A stretch of DNA of 30,108 nucleotides, taken from positions 1-30,108 of the IMG/VR virus record IMGVR_UViG_3300030095_004944; one strand, given 5' to 3'. The translations under genes and the position numbers were made by a program. This stretch comes from a virus (lineage: Duplodnaviria > Caudoviricetes). Positions 7,444-30,108 of this stretch are shown piece after piece. Each line of letters starts with the position of its first letter. Within the stretch, counting starts at the first letter, position 1. The notes below the pieces were generated by a model. That model searched no databases and had not been told where the DNA came from. It saw only the letters and a list, made by a program, of their open reading frames with translations.

Positions 7444-7466
7444 TAAGGGGGTATAAAACCCCCTTA
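7444..7466 (-). terminator. Intrinsic terminator/attenuator between the HTH gene and the primase-helicase
   Basis: 9-bp stem TAAGGGGGT/ACCCCCTTA, 5-nt loop, followed by TTTT on the minus strand. Confidence 0.6.
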
Positions 7467-7697
7467 GTCCTTTAATTTACTAACTAATTTTTCTACTTTC
7501 TGTAAATGCGGTTCACAAACTTTTGTAGATCCTTTAAACCAATTGTAAACTGTCATACGTGATACTTCTAAGAACTCAGCAACATCAGTTACAGGTATAT
7601 CGTTCTTAACACACATAGACCCCAATTGGACACCTAGTAAACCTTTATCCGCACCCTCGATTGTATCTATAAAGTTTTTTGAATAACCTTTTGACAT
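7464..7697 (-). CDS. XRE/Cro-like helix-turn-helix protein
   Basis: IPVTDVAEFLEVSRMTVYNWFKG HTH signature. Confidence 0.85.
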   Translation of the reverse strand: MSKGYSKNFIDTIEGADKGLLGVQLGSMCVKNDIPVTDVAEFLEVSRMTVYNWFKGSTKVCEPHLQKVEKLVSKLKD

Positions 7698-20502: not shown

Positions 20503-20667
20503 TTACTCTCCCTTTCTGTCTACATACTTCTTGCACAACAACGTAATGGCTTGACTGTAATTCAAACTCAAACCCATATCTTTCTCCATGATTGATTTAA
20601 CGTCATCAATTAATTGTCTTGCATCTTGTCTTATCAACAATGCTTTGTAGCTTTTAGGCATTGGCAT
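20503..20667 (-). CDS. Small ribbon-helix-helix-like DNA-binding protein (54 aa), not in ORF track
   Basis: Translated by hand: MPMPKSYKALLIRQDARQLIDDVKSIMEKDMGLSLNYSQAITLLCKKYVDRKGE (strand-helix-turn-helix pattern); AGGAGAG SD. Confidence 0.65.
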   Translation of the reverse strand: MPMPKSYKALLIRQDARQLIDDVKSIMEKDMGLSLNYSQAITLLCKKYVDRKGE

Positions 20668-21920: not shown

Positions 21921-22197
21921 TTTCACTCTCCTCTAAAATATTAATCTCAGCTTTGGCGTTCTCAATACAAGCATCGGAATCACTCACACCTATACCTTTC
22001 TCGTAAACAACCACCTCTCCGTCTTTGTCCACAATGTCGTAAACATACTTTTTTATCCCTGTTACCATGTTGCAACTCTCATAAGGGAAATCCATAATTG
22101 CGGATACAATTATGTCGTAGCCTTTGTACTCAACAAGATCGCCTTTCTCTATCATGTTTTTACGTATGTGATTAACAAGGTTTGTTTCCACTTTCAT
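21913..22197 (-). CDS. Hypothetical protein
   Basis: 94 aa; AAGGAGAG SD; coupled to neighbours. Confidence 0.7.
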   Translation of the reverse strand: MKVETNLVNHIRKNMIEKGDLVEYKGYDIIVSAIMDFPYESCNMVTGIKKYVYDIVDKDGEVVVYEKGIGVSDSDACIENAKAEINILEESENE

Positions 22198-22418
22198 ACT
22201 GGCTCTCCTTTTTTAATTATTTCCATGATGCTGTCTGCTTTCTCCAGTAAACCTATGTGAACACCAATCTCTATGTCGCTGATATCAGGGTTTTCTTTTC
22301 TTATTTTGCTAACAAACGCTTTACCAATCTCTATGTCGCTGATATCAGGGTTTTCTTTTCTTATTTTGCTAACAAACTCAGTTTCAAGTTTGCAACACTC
22401 CTCAATGTCCTTTATCAT
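22194..22418 (-). CDS. Hypothetical protein with internal duplication
   Basis: FVSKIRKENPDISDIEIG occurs twice; AAGGAGAG SD. Confidence 0.65.
   Translation of the reverse strand: MIKDIEECCKLETEFVSKIRKENPDISDIEIGKAFVSKIRKENPDISDIEIGVHIGLLEKADSIMEIIKKGEPV
22263..22377. repeat. Tandem duplication: 55 bp identical, period 60
   Basis: 22263-22317 is identical to 22323-22377. Confidence 0.95.
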
Positions 22419-22690
22419 ACTGGCTCTCCTTTTCTTCTACGTACACTTGTTCTAGGTAGTTTCAAACTACTAGGTTTAAATGCTCTCCAAAGTTCATTCA
22501 ATGTAAAAAATACTAATCCTCCAACAGCCATAAGTTTAAGCATATCTCCATAGTTGAAATACGTTATGGCATCTATACCCTCTGGTAAGAAGTAGTCCAA
22601 TGGCTTTACCCAATAGACAAACTGACTCGTTGAAAGAAAAGTAGTCAACGCTACTAGTAATATTAAAAACGCACATTTTCCTTTACTCAC
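22415..22690 (-). CDS. Small membrane protein with two predicted TM helices (91 aa)
   Basis: GTG start after AAGGAGAGTGAAA; two hydrophobic stretches. Confidence 0.7.
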   Translation of the reverse strand: MSKGKCAFLILLVALTTFLSTSQFVYWVKPLDYFLPEGIDAITYFNYGDMLKLMAVGGLVFFTLNELWRAFKPSSLKLPRTSVRRRKGEPV

Positions 22691-22958
22691 TTTCACTCTC
22701 CTTTTGTTTATTTCTATAATCTGAAATCTTTTCCTCAAACACTTCTTCGAGTGCATCACACATATGCTCGTCAAAAAAGTCTAATGTTACGTCATCCTCA
22801 ACGCTGTATAAAACTTGCATACATTCATTGTCATCTAAAAAATCTATTGGCAAATCTAAATCTCCTAATGCTTGTCTAACATCATCAATGTTCCACACAA
22901 TTGCTATTGAATTAGTTTCATTGTTGCCGTACCCATAGTTCAATTTTTCTTTACTCAT
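22683..22958 (-). CDS. Hypothetical acidic protein (91 aa)
   Basis: AAGGAGAGTGAAGATG start; SIAIVW..DDV...L.D.EC..VL pattern. Confidence 0.75.
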   Translation of the reverse strand: MSKEKLNYGYGNNETNSIAIVWNIDDVRQALGDLDLPIDFLDDNECMQVLYSVEDDVTLDFFDEHMCDALEEVFEEKISDYRNKQKESESE

Positions 22959-22970
22959 CTTCACTCTCCT

Positions 22971-24218
22971 TTAGTCAATATCAACATAAACACTCGTACC
23001 AACACCTGCAACTATCTCGCTACTTGTAATACCCCAAAACACAGGGCAATCCCATTTACCCCAATTACCAACATATCCATCTGTGAACATAACAACGCAT
23101 TGTGGGTTGATGTTTTTGTCCTTGATGTACTCTGGTACGCATCTTGGGTCAGTACCTCCACCACCTCTAGGTTTAGTTGATGAGATAATATTATCTAACT
23201 CATGTTGTTCGTATGACTCAGGTTGTTTGATGCTTGTATCCCAATACACAAGTTCAACTTTTTCTGGGTTAATATCTTTGCATATCTTAGTTACTTCTCC
23301 CAAGAACGCTGATATTTCGTGTTGTCCAATAGAACCTGATGTGTCAATACCAATAAGCAATTTACCTGCTGATTCGCCAACGAGTGACGGCAAGTAAATG
23401 TCTTGATGTATCCACCTACGATTTGGTCTACGCCATGAAGATACTTCTCTGTCAGAATTGTTGCTAATTAGAAAGAGTCGCATCATTTCTTTCCAATCAA
23501 TCTTAGGCTCAAGAATCTTCTCAACACCTCTTGGTACGTTGCCACTCATTTTCTGAGCCAACATCTTACCTTGACGTAACGCTGTGTCGATTGTTTCTCT
23601 TATTTCTTTTGCCTTGTCTTCGTCTTTAGACATTTCTTCTGCCTTATCCCACAAGTGGTCATCAAGTGTTTGCCCATCATTGCCACCGCTTGATTGTTGT
23701 CCCTCTTCTTGAGAATCACTACTAGAGGTTTCTCCATTACCTTTACCCTTTCCCTTACCTTTTTTGTATAGATCATCAAAGATTGTCTTGGTATCTTGAA
23801 TGACATCATTGACCCTGTACTTGTCATCACACAACGCACCCTCGATAGGCTCAAGAAATTTCTGACTTGGATCAATGTCATACTTAATAGTGAGATTGTT
23901 AAAATGATCGGTAGCCATATTTGCACACATGGGGTCTTTCTTACGTAGTGGTTGCCACACGATTAGGTGCATAGCCACAATGTGCATAATCTCATGCATA
24001 ATGAGATATCTAAGTTGACCATCAGTAAGACCCTTGACGAAATCATCATAGAACCAAATGTTGTACCCATCTGTACACGCAGTTCTACAAAGACTTGCGT
24101 CATCAGTAACAAACATAGGACAACTTAGAACCAATGGAGAAAACATAACTGTGCGTTTGTCACTTGTCAGACTTACTTTTTGCCTGACAATGCGTTTGGT
24201 TGTGTCTAGTCTTGCCAT
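22971..24218 (-). CDS. Metallopeptidase-vWA protein (DUF2201-like)
   Basis: TACTDG, HEIMH (HExxH), low-complexity linker, MIDAS DTSGS, GGGTD, FTDG. Confidence 0.88.
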   Translation of the reverse strand: MARLDTTKRIVRQKVSLTSDKRTVMFSPLVLSCPMFVTDDASLCRTACTDGYNIWFYDDFVKGLTDGQLRYLIMHEIMHIVAMHLIVWQPLRKKDPMCANMATDHFNNLTIKYDIDPSQKFLEPIEGALCDDKYRVNDVIQDTKTIFDDLYKKGKGKGKGNGETSSSDSQEEGQQSSGGNDGQTLDDHLWDKAEEMSKDEDKAKEIRETIDTALRQGKMLAQKMSGNVPRGVEKILEPKIDWKEMMRLFLISNNSDREVSSWRRPNRRWIHQDIYLPSLVGESAGKLLIGIDTSGSIGQHEISAFLGEVTKICKDINPEKVELVYWDTSIKQPESYEQHELDNIISSTKPRGGGGTDPRCVPEYIKDKNINPQCVVMFTDGYVGNWGKWDCPVFWGITSSEIVAGVGTSVYVDID

Positions 24219-24229
24219 CTCTACTCTCC

Positions 24230-25150
24230 TTAAAGATTAAACTTACTAAGAACATCATCAATATTTCGCTTGACAGTATGTCTTACAGAATCACTTTCAC
24301 GTAACTGTTTCGCATCACAATTAGCCACCGCTTTTTGTGTTTCATTAATCAAGTCAGTAATGCGTGGGTCATCTGTAAGATTTAGGTCATGTGCTACTGA
24401 ACACAAGTCTGTGATGTTGGTAACGATTGTGTCTTTGAATGACTGATGATAGATGGTGTCGGTCTTTGTAACTTTAGGTACTGGCAAGTCTGCAAGTCTC
24501 TCACTTGCTTTTACCAAACCATCTTTGATATCGTCACAAAGTTTTGTCATAGACTCAAACAACTGATTCTCTAACAACCTAGTTTGTTTCGCTTGTATAT
24601 CCACCAACACATCATTAGCAACTTGTACTTTGAAATCGCCATCAGGCACTTGTAAATAATCATGACGAAAATCAAACCTGTACCTCAACTCATCTGGGTG
24701 TGGGTAGTCTGCTTGTGTGATTGTATCTTTCCAATCATCTCTTGAATGTTGTCTCCAGTAATCTATGGAAGATAAAACAGACTTCTCATAGTTATCTTCT
24801 TCAAGAAACTTACTCCAAGCATTGGTGTACAAGTCCTCAAACTGATTCATCTTTGACACAAAGAAATCAAATCGTTTCATGGACAGCAACTTCTCTCCAT
24901 GTGACCACACGTTGGTGTGTTTGTTTACGAATGATCGGGCATCACTATCAACTCTTGTGATTGCTTTAAATCTCTCGTCATTTTGAAACAGATTGACTTT
25001 CATCAACAACCCACGTGTGTCAGCAATCTTTGTTTTCTCCTCATCACAAGACTTCTTGCCGTCCCACTTGGATATGCCAAACCTCACAATTACACAACGT
25101 CTGTATAAGTTGGTAACTGACTCAGCGACTTTGCTTGTAGATAATTCCAT
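24230..25150 (-). CDS. Hypothetical protein (306 aa) between the AAA ATPase and vWA genes (possibly DUF3150-like)
   Basis: Start at MELSTS with AAGGAGAGTGAAATG; the track's upstream extension runs through the palindrome and is unlikely to be translated. Confidence 0.75.
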   Translation of the reverse strand: MELSTSKVAESVTNLYRRCVIVRFGISKWDGKKSCDEEKTKIADTRGLLMKVNLFQNDERFKAITRVDSDARSFVNKHTNVWSHGEKLLSMKRFDFFVSKMNQFEDLYTNAWSKFLEEDNYEKSVLSSIDYWRQHSRDDWKDTITQADYPHPDELRYRFDFRHDYLQVPDGDFKVQVANDVLVDIQAKQTRLLENQLFESMTKLCDDIKDGLVKASERLADLPVPKVTKTDTIYHQSFKDTIVTNITDLCSVAHDLNLTDDPRITDLINETQKAVANCDAKQLRESDSVRHTVKRNIDDVLSKFNL

Positions 25151-25178
25151 TTCACTCTCCTTAATTAATAAAAAATTA

Positions 25179-25198
25179 CTCTCGGAGTACTCCGAGAG
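25179..25198. repeat. 20-bp palindrome copy 1, CTCTCGGAGTACTCCGAGAG
   Basis: Perfect palindrome, intergenic, just upstream of the SD of the gene starting at 25150. Confidence 0.95.
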
Positions 25199-25215
25199 GG
25201 AAACAACAACTACAA

Positions 25216-26346
25216 TTAAGTAAACAACCACTTCATTTCTGTTGCACGTTTAGTAAACGCATCACAATCAATAGCGATCTCTTGCTTTTCTTTACTAGTC
25301 ATAACTGATCTATAAAACACACCCTCATACTCAGGGTCATACCTTTTGAAATATGTGACCAAACTGTCAAGAATATTTTCATCAAGTAACGTCAACGCTT
25401 TTGTGACTACCATAAACTTAACTGCAACATCTTCTTGTTTAGGTAAAGGTGCGTTTGCAGGGTCGGTAACAATCTTATTCCAACTAGGCATCTTGTCAGC
25501 AAACTTCTTTAATGCCAACAAAGTCTGTGAAGCATACGTACCAATAGCACCCTTGAGCATACCTCTCAACACACGCTCAGAAACCTTGTCACTTTTCTTG
25601 ATGATCTTACTCGCCATCTCTAATGTGTATGGACACACAAACGCTTCCACACTTGGTTCTCTTGCAGGGTTGAATATCATCTTGTTGTCATGCCCTTTTG
25701 TATATGAGTCTAGGCAGTTTGGGTTTTCTTTGACGAAATAAATAACGAGTGGGTCAATGTCATTGTCTATTGCCCATGAACCCCAACTGTCAGGTTCGAT
25801 CTCATTGTTGAGTGGGTTAAGTCCTGCACGTGGCTTTTCTACTCCTACTCTGACAGTACGTCTTTTGATGAAAGGTTGCGGTTTATCTCCACACCCATCA
25901 GTTTCAAGGTTAGATGCACAAAATACTATACTACCCTCTGGTGCTACCCAATCATTGAGCCTACGATCTTGAAGAAATGATGCGACTGCGTTTAGTACAG
26001 TTTTAGGTGCCTTGTATATCTCATCAAACATAATACAAACTTTCTTACCTTTAAACTGTGAACCAAAATCAGCATTGGGTACAAACTTACTTACTGTGAC
26101 ACCCTCGATCTTTGTCACAGTTGGTAATGCAAGATCGCCAACGTCCATACGTCCCATGTCAAAGATGTGATAGTGGTAATCATCAGTACCAAACACCTTT
26201 TTAAGTTTGCCCATTGATGCGGTCTTACCAATTCCTGGTTCTCCAATACCATTTAAGGTCAAGTCTGTACCATAAGTTGCGATAGCATCAGCAAAATCAT
26301 TTACTGACATATCTCCCAAATCTGCTACGTAGTCTTGTTTAGACAT
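25216..26346 (-). CDS. MoxR-like AAA+ ATPase (376 aa)
   Basis: Walker A GEPGIGKT, Walker B IMFDE, ASN sensor 1; start at MSKQDY with AAGGAGAG SD; vWA partner nearby. Confidence 0.85.
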   Translation of the reverse strand: MSKQDYVADLGDMSVNDFADAIATYGTDLTLNGIGEPGIGKTASMGKLKKVFGTDDYHYHIFDMGRMDVGDLALPTVTKIEGVTVSKFVPNADFGSQFKGKKVCIMFDEIYKAPKTVLNAVASFLQDRRLNDWVAPEGSIVFCASNLETDGCGDKPQPFIKRRTVRVGVEKPRAGLNPLNNEIEPDSWGSWAIDNDIDPLVIYFVKENPNCLDSYTKGHDNKMIFNPAREPSVEAFVCPYTLEMASKIIKKSDKVSERVLRGMLKGAIGTYASQTLLALKKFADKMPSWNKIVTDPANAPLPKQEDVAVKFMVVTKALTLLDENILDSLVTYFKRYDPEYEGVFYRSVMTSKEKQEIAIDCDAFTKRATEMKWLFT

Positions 26347-26372
26347 AATTACTCTCCTTTTAATTAAGATTA

Positions 26373-26392
26373 CTCTCGGAGTATTCCGAGAG
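26373..26392. repeat. Palindrome copy 2 (centre GTAT)
   Basis: CTCTCGGA GTAT TCCGAGAG, between the promoter and the AAA ATPase SD. Confidence 0.95.
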
Positions 26393-26414
26393 AGAAACAA
26401 CTTGTTATATACAT

Positions 26415-26443
26415 ATGATATATGTATACCTTTACATTGTCAA
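26415..26443 (-). promoter_or_regulatory. sigma70-type promoter for the AAA/vWA operon, overlapped by an inverted repeat (26408-26428)
   Basis: Minus strand TTGACA-17 nt-TATCAT; TATACATAT-gat-ATATGTATA inverted repeat covers the -10 box. Confidence 0.75.
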
Positions 26444-26447
26444 CTAC

Positions 26448-26690
26448 TCACACCTCCTTTCCTATATGCCACTTGCGGTCTAAAGGTAGACCCCAAAATG
26501 TGTTTGCAAGTTTATCTCCAAACCTTGCGTATTTCTTACACCTCAACTCATGGTCAGGACGTTTATCTCCTGCTTCTTTTTTCCCATAAAAATACCCACG
26601 ACTAGGAGTCCAGAACTTGACTTGTCGCCTACACACAGTCCTTTTCATAGGTCTACGTTTGGTTAGTTGAAAACAACGTATAAATCTCAT
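26448..26690 (-). CDS. Small basic hypothetical protein
   Basis: AAGGAGG SD; TGATG coupling to the upstream ORF. Confidence 0.6.
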   Translation of the reverse strand: MRFIRCFQLTKRRPMKRTVCRRQVKFWTPSRGYFYGKKEAGDKRPDHELRCKKYARFGDKLANTFWGLPLDRKWHIGKEV

Positions 26691-26863
26691 CACTTACCCT
26701 CCTTTCTTTGGTAGTCACGATTTATAGAATAATCACAAGCAAGGTTCTCTTTAAGTTTTCTTCTTCTATCAAACCTCGCTTTCATCTCTCGGTGTCTGCG
26801 TTCATGTTCAAACACAAACGCTAGGTCTTTAAGACCAAACCCACAACTCCACTTTTTTCTCAT
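26690..26863 (-). CDS. Small arginine-rich protein (57 aa), not in ORF track
   Basis: Translated by hand: MRKKWSCGFGLKDLAFVFEHERRHREMKARFDRRRKLKENLACDYSINRDYQRKEGK; GGGAGG SD; TGATG coupling. Confidence 0.65.
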   Translation of the reverse strand: MRKKWSCGFGLKDLAFVFEHERRHREMKARFDRRRKLKENLACDYSINRDYQRKEGK

Positions 26864-26880
26864 TACTCACACCTCCCTTT

Positions 26881-27534
26881 CTAAAAGTTTCCTTTAGCTA
26901 CTTGATGGCATACCAATCCATTTCTACGCCACATATCGACAACTTCATCTCGATCGTCTAGCACTAGGGATATACGTTTTTTCCAACCCATCTGCACGAT
27001 CTTTGTATTTTCTTTCCAAGAATAATTTATTCGTTTCTCTATGTATGGCTTTATCTTTCGCCACAAAATTTCTTCTTTGATTATATGGTCTGGTCTATAA
27101 TCGCCAAACTCACGCATGAATAAATTATTCTCTGCACCGATATAACCCTCAGTATGATGTAGATTATTACTTGTTAGCCAACACTCAGTTCCTAATCTAT
27201 GCTCCTCACTTCTAGCGGAACAATAGATAATGTTGTAACCACTATCATGAAATAAATCTAAAATGGTTCTTGTGGTCTCAATAACTTTATCCTCTTCTTG
27301 CTCGGCAAAAAAAGATTTAAAGTCTTTTTTCTTACCCTCAAGATAATGCCGTCTATGTTCACAATCAGAAATAGTGCCGTCAATATCACATATAACAAAC
27401 TTAAAATTAGAGTTCTGTACTGAATCTAAACCCAACATAGAGTCCTCATCATCTTCTGCACCAATGCGTGGGTCATCATTCCCCCAAGCTACCTCATCAA
27501 GTAAAATTACGCTTTTAGTTTTACCATTCATCAC
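26881..27534 (-). CDS. HAD-family phosphatase resembling the T4 PseT/Pnkp 3'-phosphatase domain (no kinase domain)
   Basis: DIDGT, SAR, MR..GDYRPD...K, DDRDEVVDMWRRNG..C.QV. Confidence 0.85.
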   Translation of the reverse strand: MMNGKTKSVILLDEVAWGNDDPRIGAEDDEDSMLGLDSVQNSNFKFVICDIDGTISDCEHRRHYLEGKKKDFKSFFAEQEEDKVIETTRTILDLFHDSGYNIIYCSARSEEHRLGTECWLTSNNLHHTEGYIGAENNLFMREFGDYRPDHIIKEEILWRKIKPYIEKRINYSWKENTKIVQMGWKKRISLVLDDRDEVVDMWRRNGLVCHQVAKGNF

Positions 27535-27544
27535 TCATACCTCC

Positions 27545-27760
27545 TCATTTTTTATGGACAGTTCTTAAATCATCTGGGTTGTGTACGTACTGATACGCTC
27601 CCTTGTTAAAACCAATCGTTACTGTATGCACTTGTGGATTTTTCCTATCTTCAATCTCCTGACAAGGTATGCACGTGACATGGTTCATATCTGCACGACC
27701 TTTTGGGATAGGGTCATAACACAATACACACAATGGTTGATTGTGTTTACCAACTACCAT
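27545..27760 (-). CDS. TraR/DksA-type C4 zinc-finger protein (71 aa)
   Basis: CVLCYDPIPKGR......CIPCQ; start at MVVGK with GGGAGG SD. Confidence 0.7.
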   Translation of the reverse strand: MVVGKHNQPLCVLCYDPIPKGRADMNHVTCIPCQEIEDRKNPQVHTVTIGFNKGAYQYVHNPDDLRTVHKK

Positions 27761-27852
27761 TACACACCTCCCAATGCAACATACACAACAACAAAGAGCA
27801 TGGTCACAAAGACCATGCCCCAAACAACCCACTCCGAAAAATAATTAATCAT
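27760..27852 (-). CDS. 30-aa single-pass membrane peptide, not in ORF track
   Basis: MINYFSEWVVWGMVFVTMLFVVVYVALGGV; GGAGG SD; ATGA and TAATG coupling at the two ends. Confidence 0.65.
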   Translation of the reverse strand: MINYFSEWVVWGMVFVTMLFVVVYVALGGV

Positions 27853-28052
27853 AATCTAATTACCTCCCCCTTTTTTTCTCCCTCCAGTAACTCCACGAAT
27901 GTGACTGAAGATTGTAACAACTTGTTGTCACCACTGCCACGATACGTATTGCGTTTTATCGTGGGTTCAGGTACATACTTCTTTAATGTGGTTTTTAACT
28001 CGTACAACTTTGTTACTTGATCTGGTGCAAGGATATCTCGTAGGCTACTCAT
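27849..28052 (-). CDS. Hypothetical protein
   Basis: 67 aa; TAATG coupling. Confidence 0.65.
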   Translation of the reverse strand: MSSLRDILAPDQVTKLYELKTTLKKYVPEPTIKRNTYRGSGDNKLLQSSVTFVELLEGEKKGEVIRL

Positions 28053-28207
28053 TATTGAACCCCCAAATTTAGATGTGTGTAGTTACGTTCTTGTGGAACA
28101 TCTCTGTTTGCGTCTGCCCACTGCTTGTCATAGAACTTACGCATAGCCCTGTTTTTTTCTTCAGGGGTTAACGAATACTTCTTGTTTTTATTTGACTTGA
28201 TTGTCAT
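28052..28207 (-). CDS. Small basic protein (51 aa), first ORF after the long leader
   Basis: AAGGAGAGTGAAATG start at MTIKSNK. Confidence 0.7.
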   Translation of the reverse strand: MTIKSNKNKKYSLTPEEKNRAMRKFYDKQWADANRDVPQERNYTHLNLGVQ

Positions 28208-28249
28208 TTCACTCTCCTTTAAATTAAAATAAAAATTTACAACAACACC

Positions 28250-28321
28250 AACAGGGTGCTGATATACGCTCGACTCTCGGAGTACTCCGAGAGGAAACCA
28301 AACGCATATCGCCACCCTGTT
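28250..28321 (-). repeat. Palindrome copy 3 (28274-28293) at the tip of a 72-nt extended hairpin
   Basis: Minus-strand RNA: AACAGGGUG/CACCCUGUU, then a 13-bp helix GAUAUGCGUUUGG/UCGAGCGUAUAUC with G-U pairs, a UUUC bulge, and the palindrome stem. Confidence 0.9.
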
Positions 28322-28649
28322 TTCAAAATGACGAAGTTCCTCTGCTATTTCACGGCAGTTCATTGTAGTGAGGTTAGGAACAAAAAAGGATTAAGAAAAC
28401 TAACGTGCCAACACGACACACTCGACAAAACAAATCGTGCGTTAGTAAAAGTAATCACAGAGGTACTCACAACGTACAACGAACAAAGGGAGGAAGTCCT
28501 AAACTGCCATACTCCAATCGATAACTAGATCAACTCCACGACAGAATTGAAATGGTACTGCTACCGATCTTCTACGTTACTGAAGTTCTAAGTATGCTAA
28601 AGATCTCGTGCCTGTATGAGCGTGATACGTTGCCCCTACTCTGTACCAA

Positions 28650-28669
28650 CTCTCGGAGTACTCCGAGAG
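28650..28669. repeat. Palindrome copy 4
   Basis: Perfect 20-mer; extends GCCAA(C)/UUGGU on the minus strand. Confidence 0.95.
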
Positions 28670-28682
28670 GTTGGCGTTTTTC

Positions 28683-28697
28683 AAATTGTTAAAGATC
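28683..28697 (-). promoter_or_regulatory. boxA-like antitermination element
   Basis: Minus strand GATCTTTAACAATTT versus E. coli rrn boxA region GCTCTTTAACAATTT (one mismatch); about 50 nt downstream of the inferred transcription start, between two hairpins. Confidence 0.6.
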
Positions 28698-28706
28698 GTG
28701 GCTACA

Positions 28707-28727
28707 CTCTCGGAGTTACTCCGAGAG
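28707..28727. repeat. Palindrome copy 5 (21 bp, centre GTTAC)
   Basis: CTCTCGGA GTTAC TCCGAGAG. Confidence 0.95.
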
Positions 28728-28754
28728 GTGCTTTCCAACTGTACTACAAATACC

Positions 28755-28783
28755 ATTATATCATAACCATATTAGATTGTCAA
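28755..28783 (-). promoter_or_regulatory. Consensus sigma70 promoter with extended -10 (probable major early promoter)
   Basis: Minus strand TTGACA-17 nt-TATAAT with TGn immediately before the -10 box. Confidence 0.88.
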
Positions 28784-28800
28784 GGGGGGGGTCAAGGGTG

Positions 28801-29178
28801 TAATGTTCCACAATGTTCTGTAATGTTCCATGTAAAAGTACACGATAAATTTCAATTAGATCAACGTGTTGTGTGGGATAGTGTCGGTTTGTTCCAATGT
28901 TCCACAGATTATAAACGCCTGCCGAAAGTCTCTCTTGACTCTCTCTTTTTATTTCTCTTTATGTATATTTATTTTTTCTGGCGGTATATATATTTTTTTA
29001 TTGTAAAAGATACCCCTGTTTTTTACAGTAATTGAACAAGAATATCCTTTTAGATCAATGCCTTATATAATGTTCCTCATGCTGGAACATTGTGGAACAT
29101 TACAAGCACTTTCTCAATTAAATCAATGCTTTATATTGTACTCTTAAAGTAGAAATCTTGGAACATTGTGGAACATTA
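28801..29178. repeat. Iteron-like TGTTCC(A) repeats in inverted arrangement around an AT-rich core (possible origin)
   Basis: TAATGTTCCACAATGTTC at 28801; its reverse complement at 29085 and 29161; partial units at 28821, 28890 and 29068. Confidence 0.75.
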
Positions 29179-29190
29179 TACAGTGTCAAC

Positions 29191-29210
29191 CTCTCGGAGT
29201 ACTCCGAGAG
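29191..29210. repeat. Palindrome copy 6
   Basis: Perfect 20-mer. Confidence 0.95.
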
Positions 29211-29216
29211 GGTCTT

Positions 29217-29372
29217 TTGAAACCAGTTTTCACATACCCATTGTAAAACTCTCGGAGTACTCCGAGAGGAAGATGGTCGCCCTCTCGCCAGCTTGCCCAC
29301 TTGACACCAGTTCTGGCGTTTCCGCCAGCTCGCCGACTCCCTGCCGACCTCCGCCTTCTTTTGACACCAGTT
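29217..29372. repeat. Three direct repeats of TTGA(C/A)ACCAGTT
   Basis: At 29217, 29301 and 29361. Confidence 0.8.
29249..29268. repeat. Palindrome copy 7
   Basis: Perfect 20-mer. Confidence 0.95.
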
Positions 29373-29378
29373 CCGCCC

Positions 29379-29403
29379 AAAAAAAAGCCCGCATAAGCGG
29401 GCT
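29379..29403 (-). terminator. Intrinsic terminator
   Basis: Minus strand AGCCCGC-TTAT-GCGGGCT followed by T7, just after the stop at 29421. Confidence 0.85.
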
Positions 29404-29420
29404 AATGTTAAAGAATTGGT

Positions 29421-29666
29421 TTAACACCAATTCTTTTCAAAGAAGTTTTCTTCCTCGTTAAAAAGCGAATTAATTTTAGCGAGGTCATAAACTGCACAAG
29501 CTAATTCTTCTATCGAATCGGCGTTTTTAGGATCATTTTTTAAACCTAGACCCGTTCGTTTAGAATAAGTTTTATATAACCCTTCTAAACTATTGCGGCT
29601 ATTGGTTTTTAATAATCCCTGTACTACAGAATCGTTTAATTCTTGCTGAGTGTATCTGTAAATCAT
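29421..29666 (-). CDS. Hypothetical protein
   Basis: 81 aa; GGAG SD; followed by a terminator. Confidence 0.7.
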   Translation of the reverse strand: MIYRYTQQELNDSVVQGLLKTNSRNSLEGLYKTYSKRTGLGLKNDPKNADSIEELACAVYDLAKINSLFNEEENFFEKNWC

Positions 29667-29685
29667 TTTAAATGCTCCAATAAAA

Positions 29686-29711
29686 AACCTCTCGGAATGC
29701 TCCGAGAGGTT
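29686..29711 (-). repeat. Palindrome copy 8 (centre ATGC), terminator-shaped
   Basis: AACCTCTCGGA-N4-TCCGAGAGGTT 11-bp stem running into a T tract on the minus strand. Confidence 0.9.
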
Positions 29712-29724
29712 AAGGTTAAGAAAA

Positions 29725-30108
29725 TTACACTTTTACTTCATTAATTATAGAGTCCTGCAAAAAACCGATAAGATTTAAAAAATCTCCATACTTTTCAGTT
29801 TCTCCTTCAGGAATACTATTTTTACAATCGTTAAGTTGATTGTTAGCACTTGTGGCCATCGCTTCCATGCCACCTTTCATATTGCTAGGAATCGAAAGGC
29901 TTAAATGTATTACTGCATCAGATCCAGAAGTTTCAAATTCAACTTTTTTGGCTGGTGCTTTTTTCTTGGCCTTTCCTAGTGTAACTGCACCTCCAACATT
30001 AACAGCCTTTCTAAACTTAGACATATAAGTTTCAACAGTACTGATAGAGTAAAACTCATTCAAACGCAACGCTAATTTTTGCGAGAATGTCGAACCCTTC
30101 ATTGCCAC
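29725..30108 (-). CDS. Hypothetical protein, probably 5'-truncated by the window edge
   Basis: Open frame reaches the last base of the window. Confidence 0.65.
   Translation of the reverse strand: MAMKGSTFSQKLALRLNEFYSISTVETYMSKFRKAVNVGGAVTLGKAKKKAPAKKVEFETSGSDAVIHLSLSIPSNMKGGMEAMATSANNQLNDCKNSIPEGETEKYGDFLNLIGFLQDSIINEVKV

Follow-up and report, generated by a model that had tools for sequence, protein, structure and literature searches.

Palindromes that change together with the first early gene in a group of aquatic phages and may be its operators

A marine phage early region in which one palindrome recurs eight times raises the question of whether the repeat is read as an RNA hairpin, as a sequence-only reading of this DNA had proposed, or as double-stranded DNA, and of which protein would read it. 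We analyzed the 30,108-nucleotide stretch introduced above (the window), in which all copies lie in the 25–30 kb end, together with records of related phages.

Palindromes, promoters and leader of the early region

A pattern search for CTCTCGGA-N3..6-TCCGAGAG gave exactly eight matches in the window (Table 1), where the chance expectation is 0.00 (largest count 0 in 100 shuffles), and the center is GTAC in five copies and GTAT, GTTAC or ATGC in the others. These are the copies listed by the sequence-only reading, and its observation that none occurs in the first 25 kb holds as well, since upstream of 25179 the window contains no copy even with up to four arm mismatches. Its placing of all copies outside coding sequences holds when the RBS-supported starts (25150, 26346 and 28207) are taken, except that a 60-codon ORF, shared with the closest relative alone, covers the copies at 29191 and 29249.

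Table 1. Coordinates of the palindromes and neighboring early-region features in the window
Feature	Position	Strand	Remark
AAA ATPase, PF11348-like and DUF2201 genes	22971..26346	-	conserved early module downstream of P2
Palindrome copy	25179..25198		between AAA ATPase gene and RBS of next gene; minus-strand T-run follows
Palindrome copy	26373..26392		~16 nt downstream of predicted P2 start; 26 nt before AAA start
Sigma70 promoter P2 (TTGACA-17-TATCAT)	26415..26443	-	ahead of AAA module
Leader, non-coding, conserved	28249..28647	-	covarying helices; no Rfam match
Palindrome copy	28274..28293		tip of last long stem of leader
Palindrome copy	28650..28669		downstream of boxA
boxA-like element	28682..28697	-	flanked by two palindrome copies
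Palindrome copy	28707..28727		one additional central base; ~21 nt downstream of P1 start, immediately before boxA
Consensus sigma70 promoter P1 (TTGACA-17-TATAAT)	28755..28783	-	
Palindrome copy	29191..29210		adjoins origin-like repeat tract
Palindrome copy	29249..29268		lost in close relative G001
Palindrome 29689-29708, extended	29680..29711	-	11-bp stem + U-run; directly after gene 1; terminator-like
3′ half of first early gene (gene 1)	29725..30108	-	candidate site-binding regulator; putative recognition helix 29998-30042

Phages of this group carry 5–19 copies per genome, and the sites recur every 0.5–1.5 kb along the early region. Across 12 genomes, a palindrome site lies at +14 to +61 of 28 of the 30 early sigma70 promoters (2.6 at random), and no promoter is overlapped by a site (0/30; 1.9 at random); with the −35/−10 elements free in every case, a classical promoter-overlapping operator of the lambda OR type was rejected. 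Several sites are terminator-like, and the copy at 29689 is predicted to have a dual use as palindrome and terminator-like hairpin. The element between the two copies that follow P1 matches the rrn boxA consensus; such a match, shortly downstream of the promoter on the transcribed strand, is found once and at the same place in 8 of 23 records, while the early strand of the remaining 15 has no boxA match beside the site. A spot just downstream of promoters and by boxA would also suit an RNA signal, a point against reading the sites as operators.

Judged by its sequence, the leader is a conserved structured RNA that has an rrn-type boxA and carries the palindrome inserted in its loops. The stems below the copies at 28274 and 28650 persist where the palindrome differs or is absent; two relatives (L203 and L205) lack a copy at the place equivalent to 28650 and retain the short basal stem there.

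RNA hairpin or DNA site

If the palindromes were RNA hairpins read by a phage protein or nuclease, as boxB/nut-like or processing sites, several observations would fit: the window core has a folding energy of −12 kcal/mol and, in its context, P ≥ 0.9, the order after P1 is hairpin-boxA-hairpin, and one base more or less is tolerated at the center. The last point, put forward from the sequence as loop-length tolerance, is real in several lineages (6 of 12 genomes, and also the Rhizobium phage RHph_TM3_14A, have centers that differ in length by one base) and is the best that remains for an RNA element; the same variation would be unusual for a rigid dimer on DNA.

The two strands, however, fold alike. 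Of 133 sites taken from 16 genomes, the sense strand gives the better fold in 67 and the antisense strand in 62 (p = 0.63), and the mean energy of a site with 15 nt on either side is −17.9 kcal/mol on the minus strand, −16.5 on the plus strand and −16.8 when flanks are swapped between sites. The lower stems noticed earlier on the minus strand are predicted at 28274, 28650, 28707 and 29191, but 25179 has none and 26373 only a weak distal helix; those under 28274 and 28650 are part of the conserved covarying leader, where basal stems remain without the palindrome, and plus-strand stem extensions are predicted at 28650, 28707, 29191 and 29249. In three lineages the cores reach only −0.5 to −1.2 kcal/mol.

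Imperfect copies point the same way. On the transcribed strand, the 19 one-mismatch copies found in 23 records hold 16 non-pairing combinations, two A·C and one G·U; the mismatch is at the outermost arm base in 10, the innermost in 3 and internally in 6, and five of these six internal ones cannot pair. A·C also stands on the transcribed strand in five of the eight copies of each of two relatives (L206 and L196) and in the commonest copy of the nearest alternative type. One asymmetric site of L203 is found in both orientations (2 and 2), two of the eight copies in G002 are inverted, 37 of 164 copies lie within ORFs, spacers are free in the Rhizobium phage, and the symmetry extends to central bases that could not pair in a hairpin. 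G·U over A·C with strand asymmetry, the mark of a strand-specific RNA hairpin, appears only at the apical site of the leader, equivalent to 28274, where three lineages have an imperfect copy, all G·U on the transcribed strand, above covarying stems; G002 has one further G·U copy.

In lambdoid nut sites and the boxB-boxA of rrn leaders, a hairpin stands by boxA soon after a strong promoter, and the hairpin is phage-specific; nut comprises two sites, read through the loop and strand-specific. Unlike nut, the present family has 5–19 copies with fixed arms and variable centers, of which one only adjoins boxA. An Rfam search of positions 22000–30108 returned seven matches at E ≤ 5, none near its gathering score, and four related loci returned none. 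The RNA element proposed as the nature of the family thus finds no support, in view of the absence of strand preference, the mostly non-pairing mismatches, the A·C copies and the many weak cores, and we regard hairpin recognition as quite improbable; the accompanying proposal, that a protein recognizes a specific sequence, is supported by the sequence comparisons.

Palindrome type and gene 1 among relatives

Relatives carry different palindromes, of at least 15 types, at the same positions, and in contigs 97–98% identical to the window another palindrome takes the place of the copy at 25179. In two pairs of phages that are 92–97% identical, palindrome and gene 1 have switched together. G005 and G006 share 96% identity across 10.8 kb; a single base separates them in each arm of every one of the 7 copies, and the two gene 1 products share 23% identity. 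Over matched blocks, L202 and L206 have 87–99% identity to the window, and they carry GGTGGA-type sites, with gene 1 products 18–23% identical to the window type; L204 carries the window's sites and a gene 1 that is 82% identical. L204 and L015 are without gene 2, yet keep the window's sites. Because relatives swap the palindrome and the first early gene together at the same places, the gene 1 protein probably docks at these repeats. The entire block beyond 29189 is replaced in L202 and L206, so that gene 1 could merely hitch-hike there, which speaks against the operator reading.

Gene 1 (full-length orthologue of 232 aa, L026:224-922) is hypervariable, and palindrome type tracks it. Its identity tells same-type pairs from different-type ones with an AUC of 0.97 (raw) or 1.00 (when set against background), for 30 pairs (10 same-type; background 0.60) that are related and not independent and with CTAACA-N1 and CTAACA-N2 scored as separate types, a choice that favors this result. 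Genomes of these two types group by gene 1, contrary to the backbone. Other high AUCs belong to two short off-frame ORFs (raw 0.96, 11 pairs; 0.94, 9 pairs) and to one real family (0.88, 11 pairs). Gene-1 identities overlap, same-type pairs reaching down to 36–38% and different-type pairs up to 43%, and homology is demonstrated for the window sub-clade and the TACTGTC type, the remaining groups being matched by position. Gene 1 gave no significant profile or structure match to HTH, RHH or integrase core-binding domains.

The window also encodes an RHH protein (20503–20667), an HTH protein (7464–7697) and winged helices, and these or a host transcription factor might bind the sites instead. Their recognition elements stay constant while the site changes, however: the RHH strand (YKALLI) is identical over four site types and the HTH helix is nearly constant between types. 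The HTH family reaches an AUC of 0.71 raw, and the site differs between 92–97% identical phages that presumably share hosts, so such a binder is extremely unlikely.

Recombination or gene-conversion cassettes, acting as homology patches or extruded DNA hairpins, could likewise shuffle the early genes with gene 1 hitch-hiking. Mosaic genomes with one foreign site (L202, L208, L200, L207/L027), identical asymmetric copies that share one orientation and so suggest copying, and the gain and loss of copies among relatives agree with this. Cassettes would leave unexplained the fixed promoter offset, the one-base change in both arms of all copies in 96% identical DNA and the gene-1 grouping contrary to the backbone, and gene indels among relatives fall at RBS-like junctions (26450-27530) away from the sites; we consider them very unlikely.

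A candidate operator array and its counterparts

We favor the reading in which the eight palindromes are double-stranded operators for a gene 1 dimer that forms an elongation roadblock below the early promoters, and judge it probable from the sequence comparisons. Gene 1 would be made first, from a promoter carrying its own upstream site, and would accumulate and bind every site as a dimer through a helix whose sequence is constant within a site type and different between types. Bound gene 1 would stall RNA polymerase a short way past the host-type early promoters, which would shut off early transcription as infection advances and also silence any co-infecting phage of matching type. The ±1 bp center could be accommodated by a flexible linker, rich in K/A/S, that joins two helical domains; sites in transcribed leaders would occupy hairpin loops, some doubling as terminator or boxB-like hairpins, and boxA beside P1 may bring host antitermination of the rrn type to the early operon. 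Against this reading, the complete genome G021 has no such palindrome family, nor do the 42 of 64 kb of KPP25 that were examined.

The same binding might instead activate: gene 1 could board RNA polymerase as it passes and, together with boxA and host Nus factors, bring about antitermination, or it could organize the early region in the service of injection, replication or protection. Sites come after promoters and recur along the early region, 8 records have boxA next to the P1 site, several sites are terminator-like, and sites flank the origin-like tract. In RHph_TM3_14A, a cultured phage, 30 copies of TTACC-N5/6-GGTAA occur within 45 kb (shuffles 0.05) and run genome-wide, whereas those of the aquatic clade are confined to the early region. 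None of 30 records, of which 8 are at least 90% complete, yielded a tyrosine integrase (PF00589), and there would therefore be no lysogeny to maintain. Yet 15 of 23 records have no boxA match beside the site, and fast specificity switching in near-identical co-occurring phages would be easier to account for through an immunity-like conflict. Activation is in our view unlikely, if worth keeping in mind.

For the roadblock reading, known systems offer partial counterparts. The c repressor of the temperate Streptomyces phage phiC31 binds conserved inverted repeats (CIR), present in multiple copies in the intergenic early region and also at the autoregulated repressor gene. The present sites resemble them in being inverted repeats that occur in multiple copies between early-region genes; gene 1 is tied to the phiC31 repressor family by no more than a weak language-model lead (0.81, below the tool's threshold).

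Cluster A mycobacteriophages (L5, Bxb1) have many repressor sites, operators and stoperators, mostly off promoters and blocking elongation, and site motif and repressor diverge jointly and define immunity types (PMC6550527). Co-variation of site motif and phage regulator is found for gene 1 as well, as a correlation. Stoperators are asymmetric and oriented with transcription, whereas ours are dyads in both orientations (G002, L203) and, in the aquatic clade, restricted to the early region; Cluster A is temperate, with integrase or parABS. Cluster O mycobacteriophages, without integrase, have 17-bp dyad repeats with many invariant-arm copies at gene junctions and inside genes, proposed there as sites of a dimeric DNA-binding protein, with no effect assigned to it (PMC4351075). 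Multi-copy invariant-arm dyads, intergenic and coding, in integrase-less phages are a shared pattern only. Most Cluster O sites lie away from promoters and a single sequence serves the whole cluster with no assigned binder, whereas here almost all early promoters are followed by a site, and the sites switch between near-identical genomes with a co-varying gene.

More tentatively, in a widespread group of co-occurring aquatic phages that seem lytic and are otherwise nearly identical, an unclassified, all-helical gene 1 protein and its 5–19 dyads below promoters may switch specificity as a unit. This self/non-self lock and key would, with no lysogeny involved, both time the early genes and set up types of superinfection immunity, over a new structured leader RNA that borrows host rRNA antitermination.

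For the multi-copy dyads of integrase-less phages, the Cluster O account gives neither binder nor function. Natural swaps in 92–97% identical genomes name a candidate binder and give matched cognate and non-cognate pairs, so that one small gene and short DNA would suffice to test the question in E. coli. Should the reading hold, it would add a DNA-binding family that is unclassified and naturally rich in specificities, early-gene shut-off through roadblocks downstream of promoters, and immunity-type diversification in seemingly lytic phages.

Palindromes in the window and in related phages

The window, which is the entire 30,108-base virus record and is 48% complete, encodes an LPD38 protein, a DUF927 primase, an SNF2 helicase, a PD-(D/E)XK nuclease and DNA polymerase A, along with an AAA / PF11348-like / DUF2201 module. 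Among cultured phages, the closest polymerases belong to Rhizobium phage RHph_TM3_14A (35%) and Pseudomonas phage KPP25 (34%). Part of window 25000-30108 is found in 20 of the 24 listed sequencing runs, and these 20 are labeled marine, seawater or viral metagenome, one having no label. The early region is transcribed from the minus strand. All eight copies of the palindrome, with their centres, were found as the sequence-only reading had described them, and none lies within the first 25 kb.

In a relative whose AAA is 68% identical (G002), CGTATATAC-CTA-GTATATACG occupies eight positions equivalent to those of the window. A profile of the PF11348-like gene retrieved 80 loci, about half of which carry a multi-copy, genome-specific palindrome. 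When 23 records were read at length, 20 had one clear palindrome family; in G003 and G026 the greater part of the early region is missing, and G021, a complete 65-kb clade member, has no multi-copy palindrome family. The site types include GTAGAAGTC, GTAGGAGTC, TACTGTC-N, TAATGTC-N, CTAACA-N1, CTAACA-N2 and CCTAAC-N4, and further TTAGAC-N, AGTATCA-N3, GCGGACA-N3, GGGAACA-N2, TGGGACA-N2 and GTGCAG-N5. Seven of 16 leader-anchored metagenome loci have GGTGGA(A/G)GT-AC(C/T)TCCACC sites although their matched blocks show 87-99% identity with the window. Likewise, in two of four sequencing runs aligned to the window the changes are concentrated inside sites 25179 and 26373, and the same two runs leave window 29250-30108 almost without coverage. 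Mosaic genomes carrying a single foreign site exist, and thus site types recombine. In the 45 kb read of RHph_TM3_14A (MN988472.1, L174; 1-45000) there are 30 TTACC-N5/6-GGTAA dyads, spread over early as well as late genes. These dyads are unannotated, and the gene at 42239, annotated 'putative integrase', matches the window's primase. KPP25 has no palindrome family within the 42 kb examined.

Features of the window and of two related loci (L202, L206)
Feature	Position	Strand	Remarks
Palindrome copies	25179, 26373, 28274, 28650, 28707, 29191, 29249, 29689		
P1, P2 (sigma70 promoters)	28755-28783, 26415-26443	-	
boxA-like element, rrn-type mimic	28682-28697	-	just after strongest early promoter
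Structured leader, ~400 nt, non-coding	28249-28647	-	covarying helices
Gene 1, 3' half	29725-30108	-	
RHH-like gene, conserved	20503-20667		
HTH gene	7464-7697		
Small-gene cassette (HAD phosphatase and others)	26450-27540		variable; near-identical phages have gained and lost it at RBS-like junctions
GGAACA/TGTTCC repeats, nine	28800-29175		flank A/T-rich core; origin-like; also in relatives
Hairpin and U-run	29379-29436		intrinsic-terminator-like, 3' of gene 2; adjoined by 11-bp inverted repeat
Second palindrome, TATACATAT-N3-ATATGTATA	26408-26428		overlaps P2 -10 box; retained in relatives regardless of main site type; possibly a separate operator, e.g. of the RHH-like protein of the window
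DnaA-box-like nonamer arrays (4-5)	L202:3959-4000, L206:1038-1090		3' of gene 1 in these GGTGGA-type phages; absent at corresponding place in window

DNA dyad or RNA hairpin

The palindrome had been read as an RNA element with G-U-paired lower stems on the minus strand. Lower stems are predicted at four minus-strand sites and at four plus-strand sites, and the natural flanks of the window sites fold little better than swapped flanks. Among 19 one-mismatch copies, 16 are non-pairing, two are A.C and one is G.U (13 of the 19 at arm ends; two G.U copies of G002 stand outside the tally). The strand folding test gave 67 vs 62 of 133 sites (p=0.63), and the cores fold at energies between -12.2 (window) and -0.5 kcal/mol. 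The GGTGGA type has A.C in its majority copy on the transcribed strand and G.U only in the leader's apical copy. One locus (L203) has an asymmetric site in both orientations, and 37 of 164 copies lie inside ORFs, including the polymerase, AAA and DUF2201 genes. The symmetry extends to central bases that cannot pair in a hairpin. A one-base variation of the centre, seen in RHph_TM3_14A and in 6 of 12 genomes, counts against a rigid DNA dimer. The mostly non-pairing mismatches, the lack of strand preference and the copies in ORFs argue against an RNA element, and on balance the palindrome family is very probably a DNA dyad.

Promoters, leader RNA and boxA

The comparison of positions took in 30 strong sigma70 promoters from the site-bearing part of 12 genomes; most of them represent two orthologous promoters of related phages, so they do not amount to 30 independent cases. 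At 28 of the 30, a site follows the predicted start by 14-61 nt (2.6 under random placement), three also carry a site immediately upstream, and no promoter is overlapped by one (1.9 under random placement). The remaining copies lie at gene junctions, and for 49 of the 164 an RBS-led start is no more than 60 nt away. The main rival to stalling of polymerase at these DNA sites is that they serve activation or antitermination. The order after P1 is site, boxA-like element, site. In 8 of 23 records the boxA-like sequence, which we take to be such from its match to the rrn boxA consensus, is single on the early strand and lies ~65-115 nt away from where the P1 -35 box starts. The phiC31 CIRs and nut/rrn boxA are further systems for comparison.

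The ~400 nt of the leader are conserved across lineages with different palindromes and have no match in Rfam, and the leader may itself constitute a new RNA motif. With four sequences, RNAalifold gave 93 pairs, 18 with a double change; with nine, a 23-pair stem (28322-28249) and an 8-pair helix (28447-28398) show four double changes each. The sequences represent only some three independent lineages and the z-score of the single sequence is close to 0, so this covariation is moderate evidence for a conserved RNA structure. At the 28650 position the palindrome is missing from two loci (L203, L205), which retain the basal stem, and in L202 an insertion adjoins the apical copy. The palindrome is thus a passenger in the leader's loops, and this accounts for the lower stems noted earlier.

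Gene 1 as candidate binder and the proposed mechanism

Three other candidates are unlikely as binder: the strand of the RHH-like gene is identical across four site types, the recognition helix of the HTH gene is nearly constant, and the window's site type persists in phages that lack gene 2. Gene 1, the first early gene, adjoins the divergent terminase block, usually has sites on its flanks and, in most genome pairs, shows the lowest conservation of any gene. With a profile built from 44 homologues of the G008 protein, the window-type orthologue was found among called proteins (E 1.2e-5), the match centring on a helix-loop-helix; in other groups gene 1 was assigned by position only. Its predicted structure has two helical domains with a low-confidence linker between, and a comparison with known folds gave no significant match.

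Gene 1 identity is 36-86% in same-type pairs (10 pairs) and at most 43% in different-type pairs (200 pairs), with an AUC of 0.97 raw and 1.00 relative (30 pairs with background at least 58%). The background itself gave 0.60 and real families at most 0.78 relative; raw values of 0.88-0.96 (9-11 pairs) were also reached by one real family and by two off-frame ORFs, both short. The strongest evidence for gene 1 as candidate binder comes from two natural swaps. G005 and G006 are 96% identical over 10.8 kb; each of the seven copies differs between them at one base in both arms, and their gene 1 products are 23% identical; a HAD phosphatase likewise differs. Between the window type and the L202/L206 type, gene 1 products are 18-23% identical; those of L202 and L206 are 38% identical to each other, with the putative helix conserved, and that of L204, which has the window's sites, is 82% identical to the window type. 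Compared with two loci of its own site type (L026, L015), the window's gene 1 is only 76-77% identical despite the shared type, and other matched proteins in those genomes are mostly over 90% identical. Such divergence even within one site type hints at diversifying selection.

We found no published account of the clade's repeats in the literature searched. We propose that the phage array works like the Cluster A stoperators (PMC6550527), but its symmetry and orientation set it outside that group. The array has a pattern in common with the Cluster O dyads, whose function the source leaves open (PMC4351075).

The sites, their positions, the swaps and the co-variation with gene 1 are observed directly, and the mechanism that follows is proposed. 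The role of the sites and gene 1 is probably not prophage maintenance, because the lifestyle search, which covered one temperate strategy, revealed no tyrosine integrase in any of 30 records, of which 8 are near complete. In the mechanism that we favour, gene 1 dimers would occupy the dyads and halt host RNA polymerase once it has initiated, with boxA promoting read-through before shut-off. Stalling would then turn the early genes off and exclude phages of the same type.
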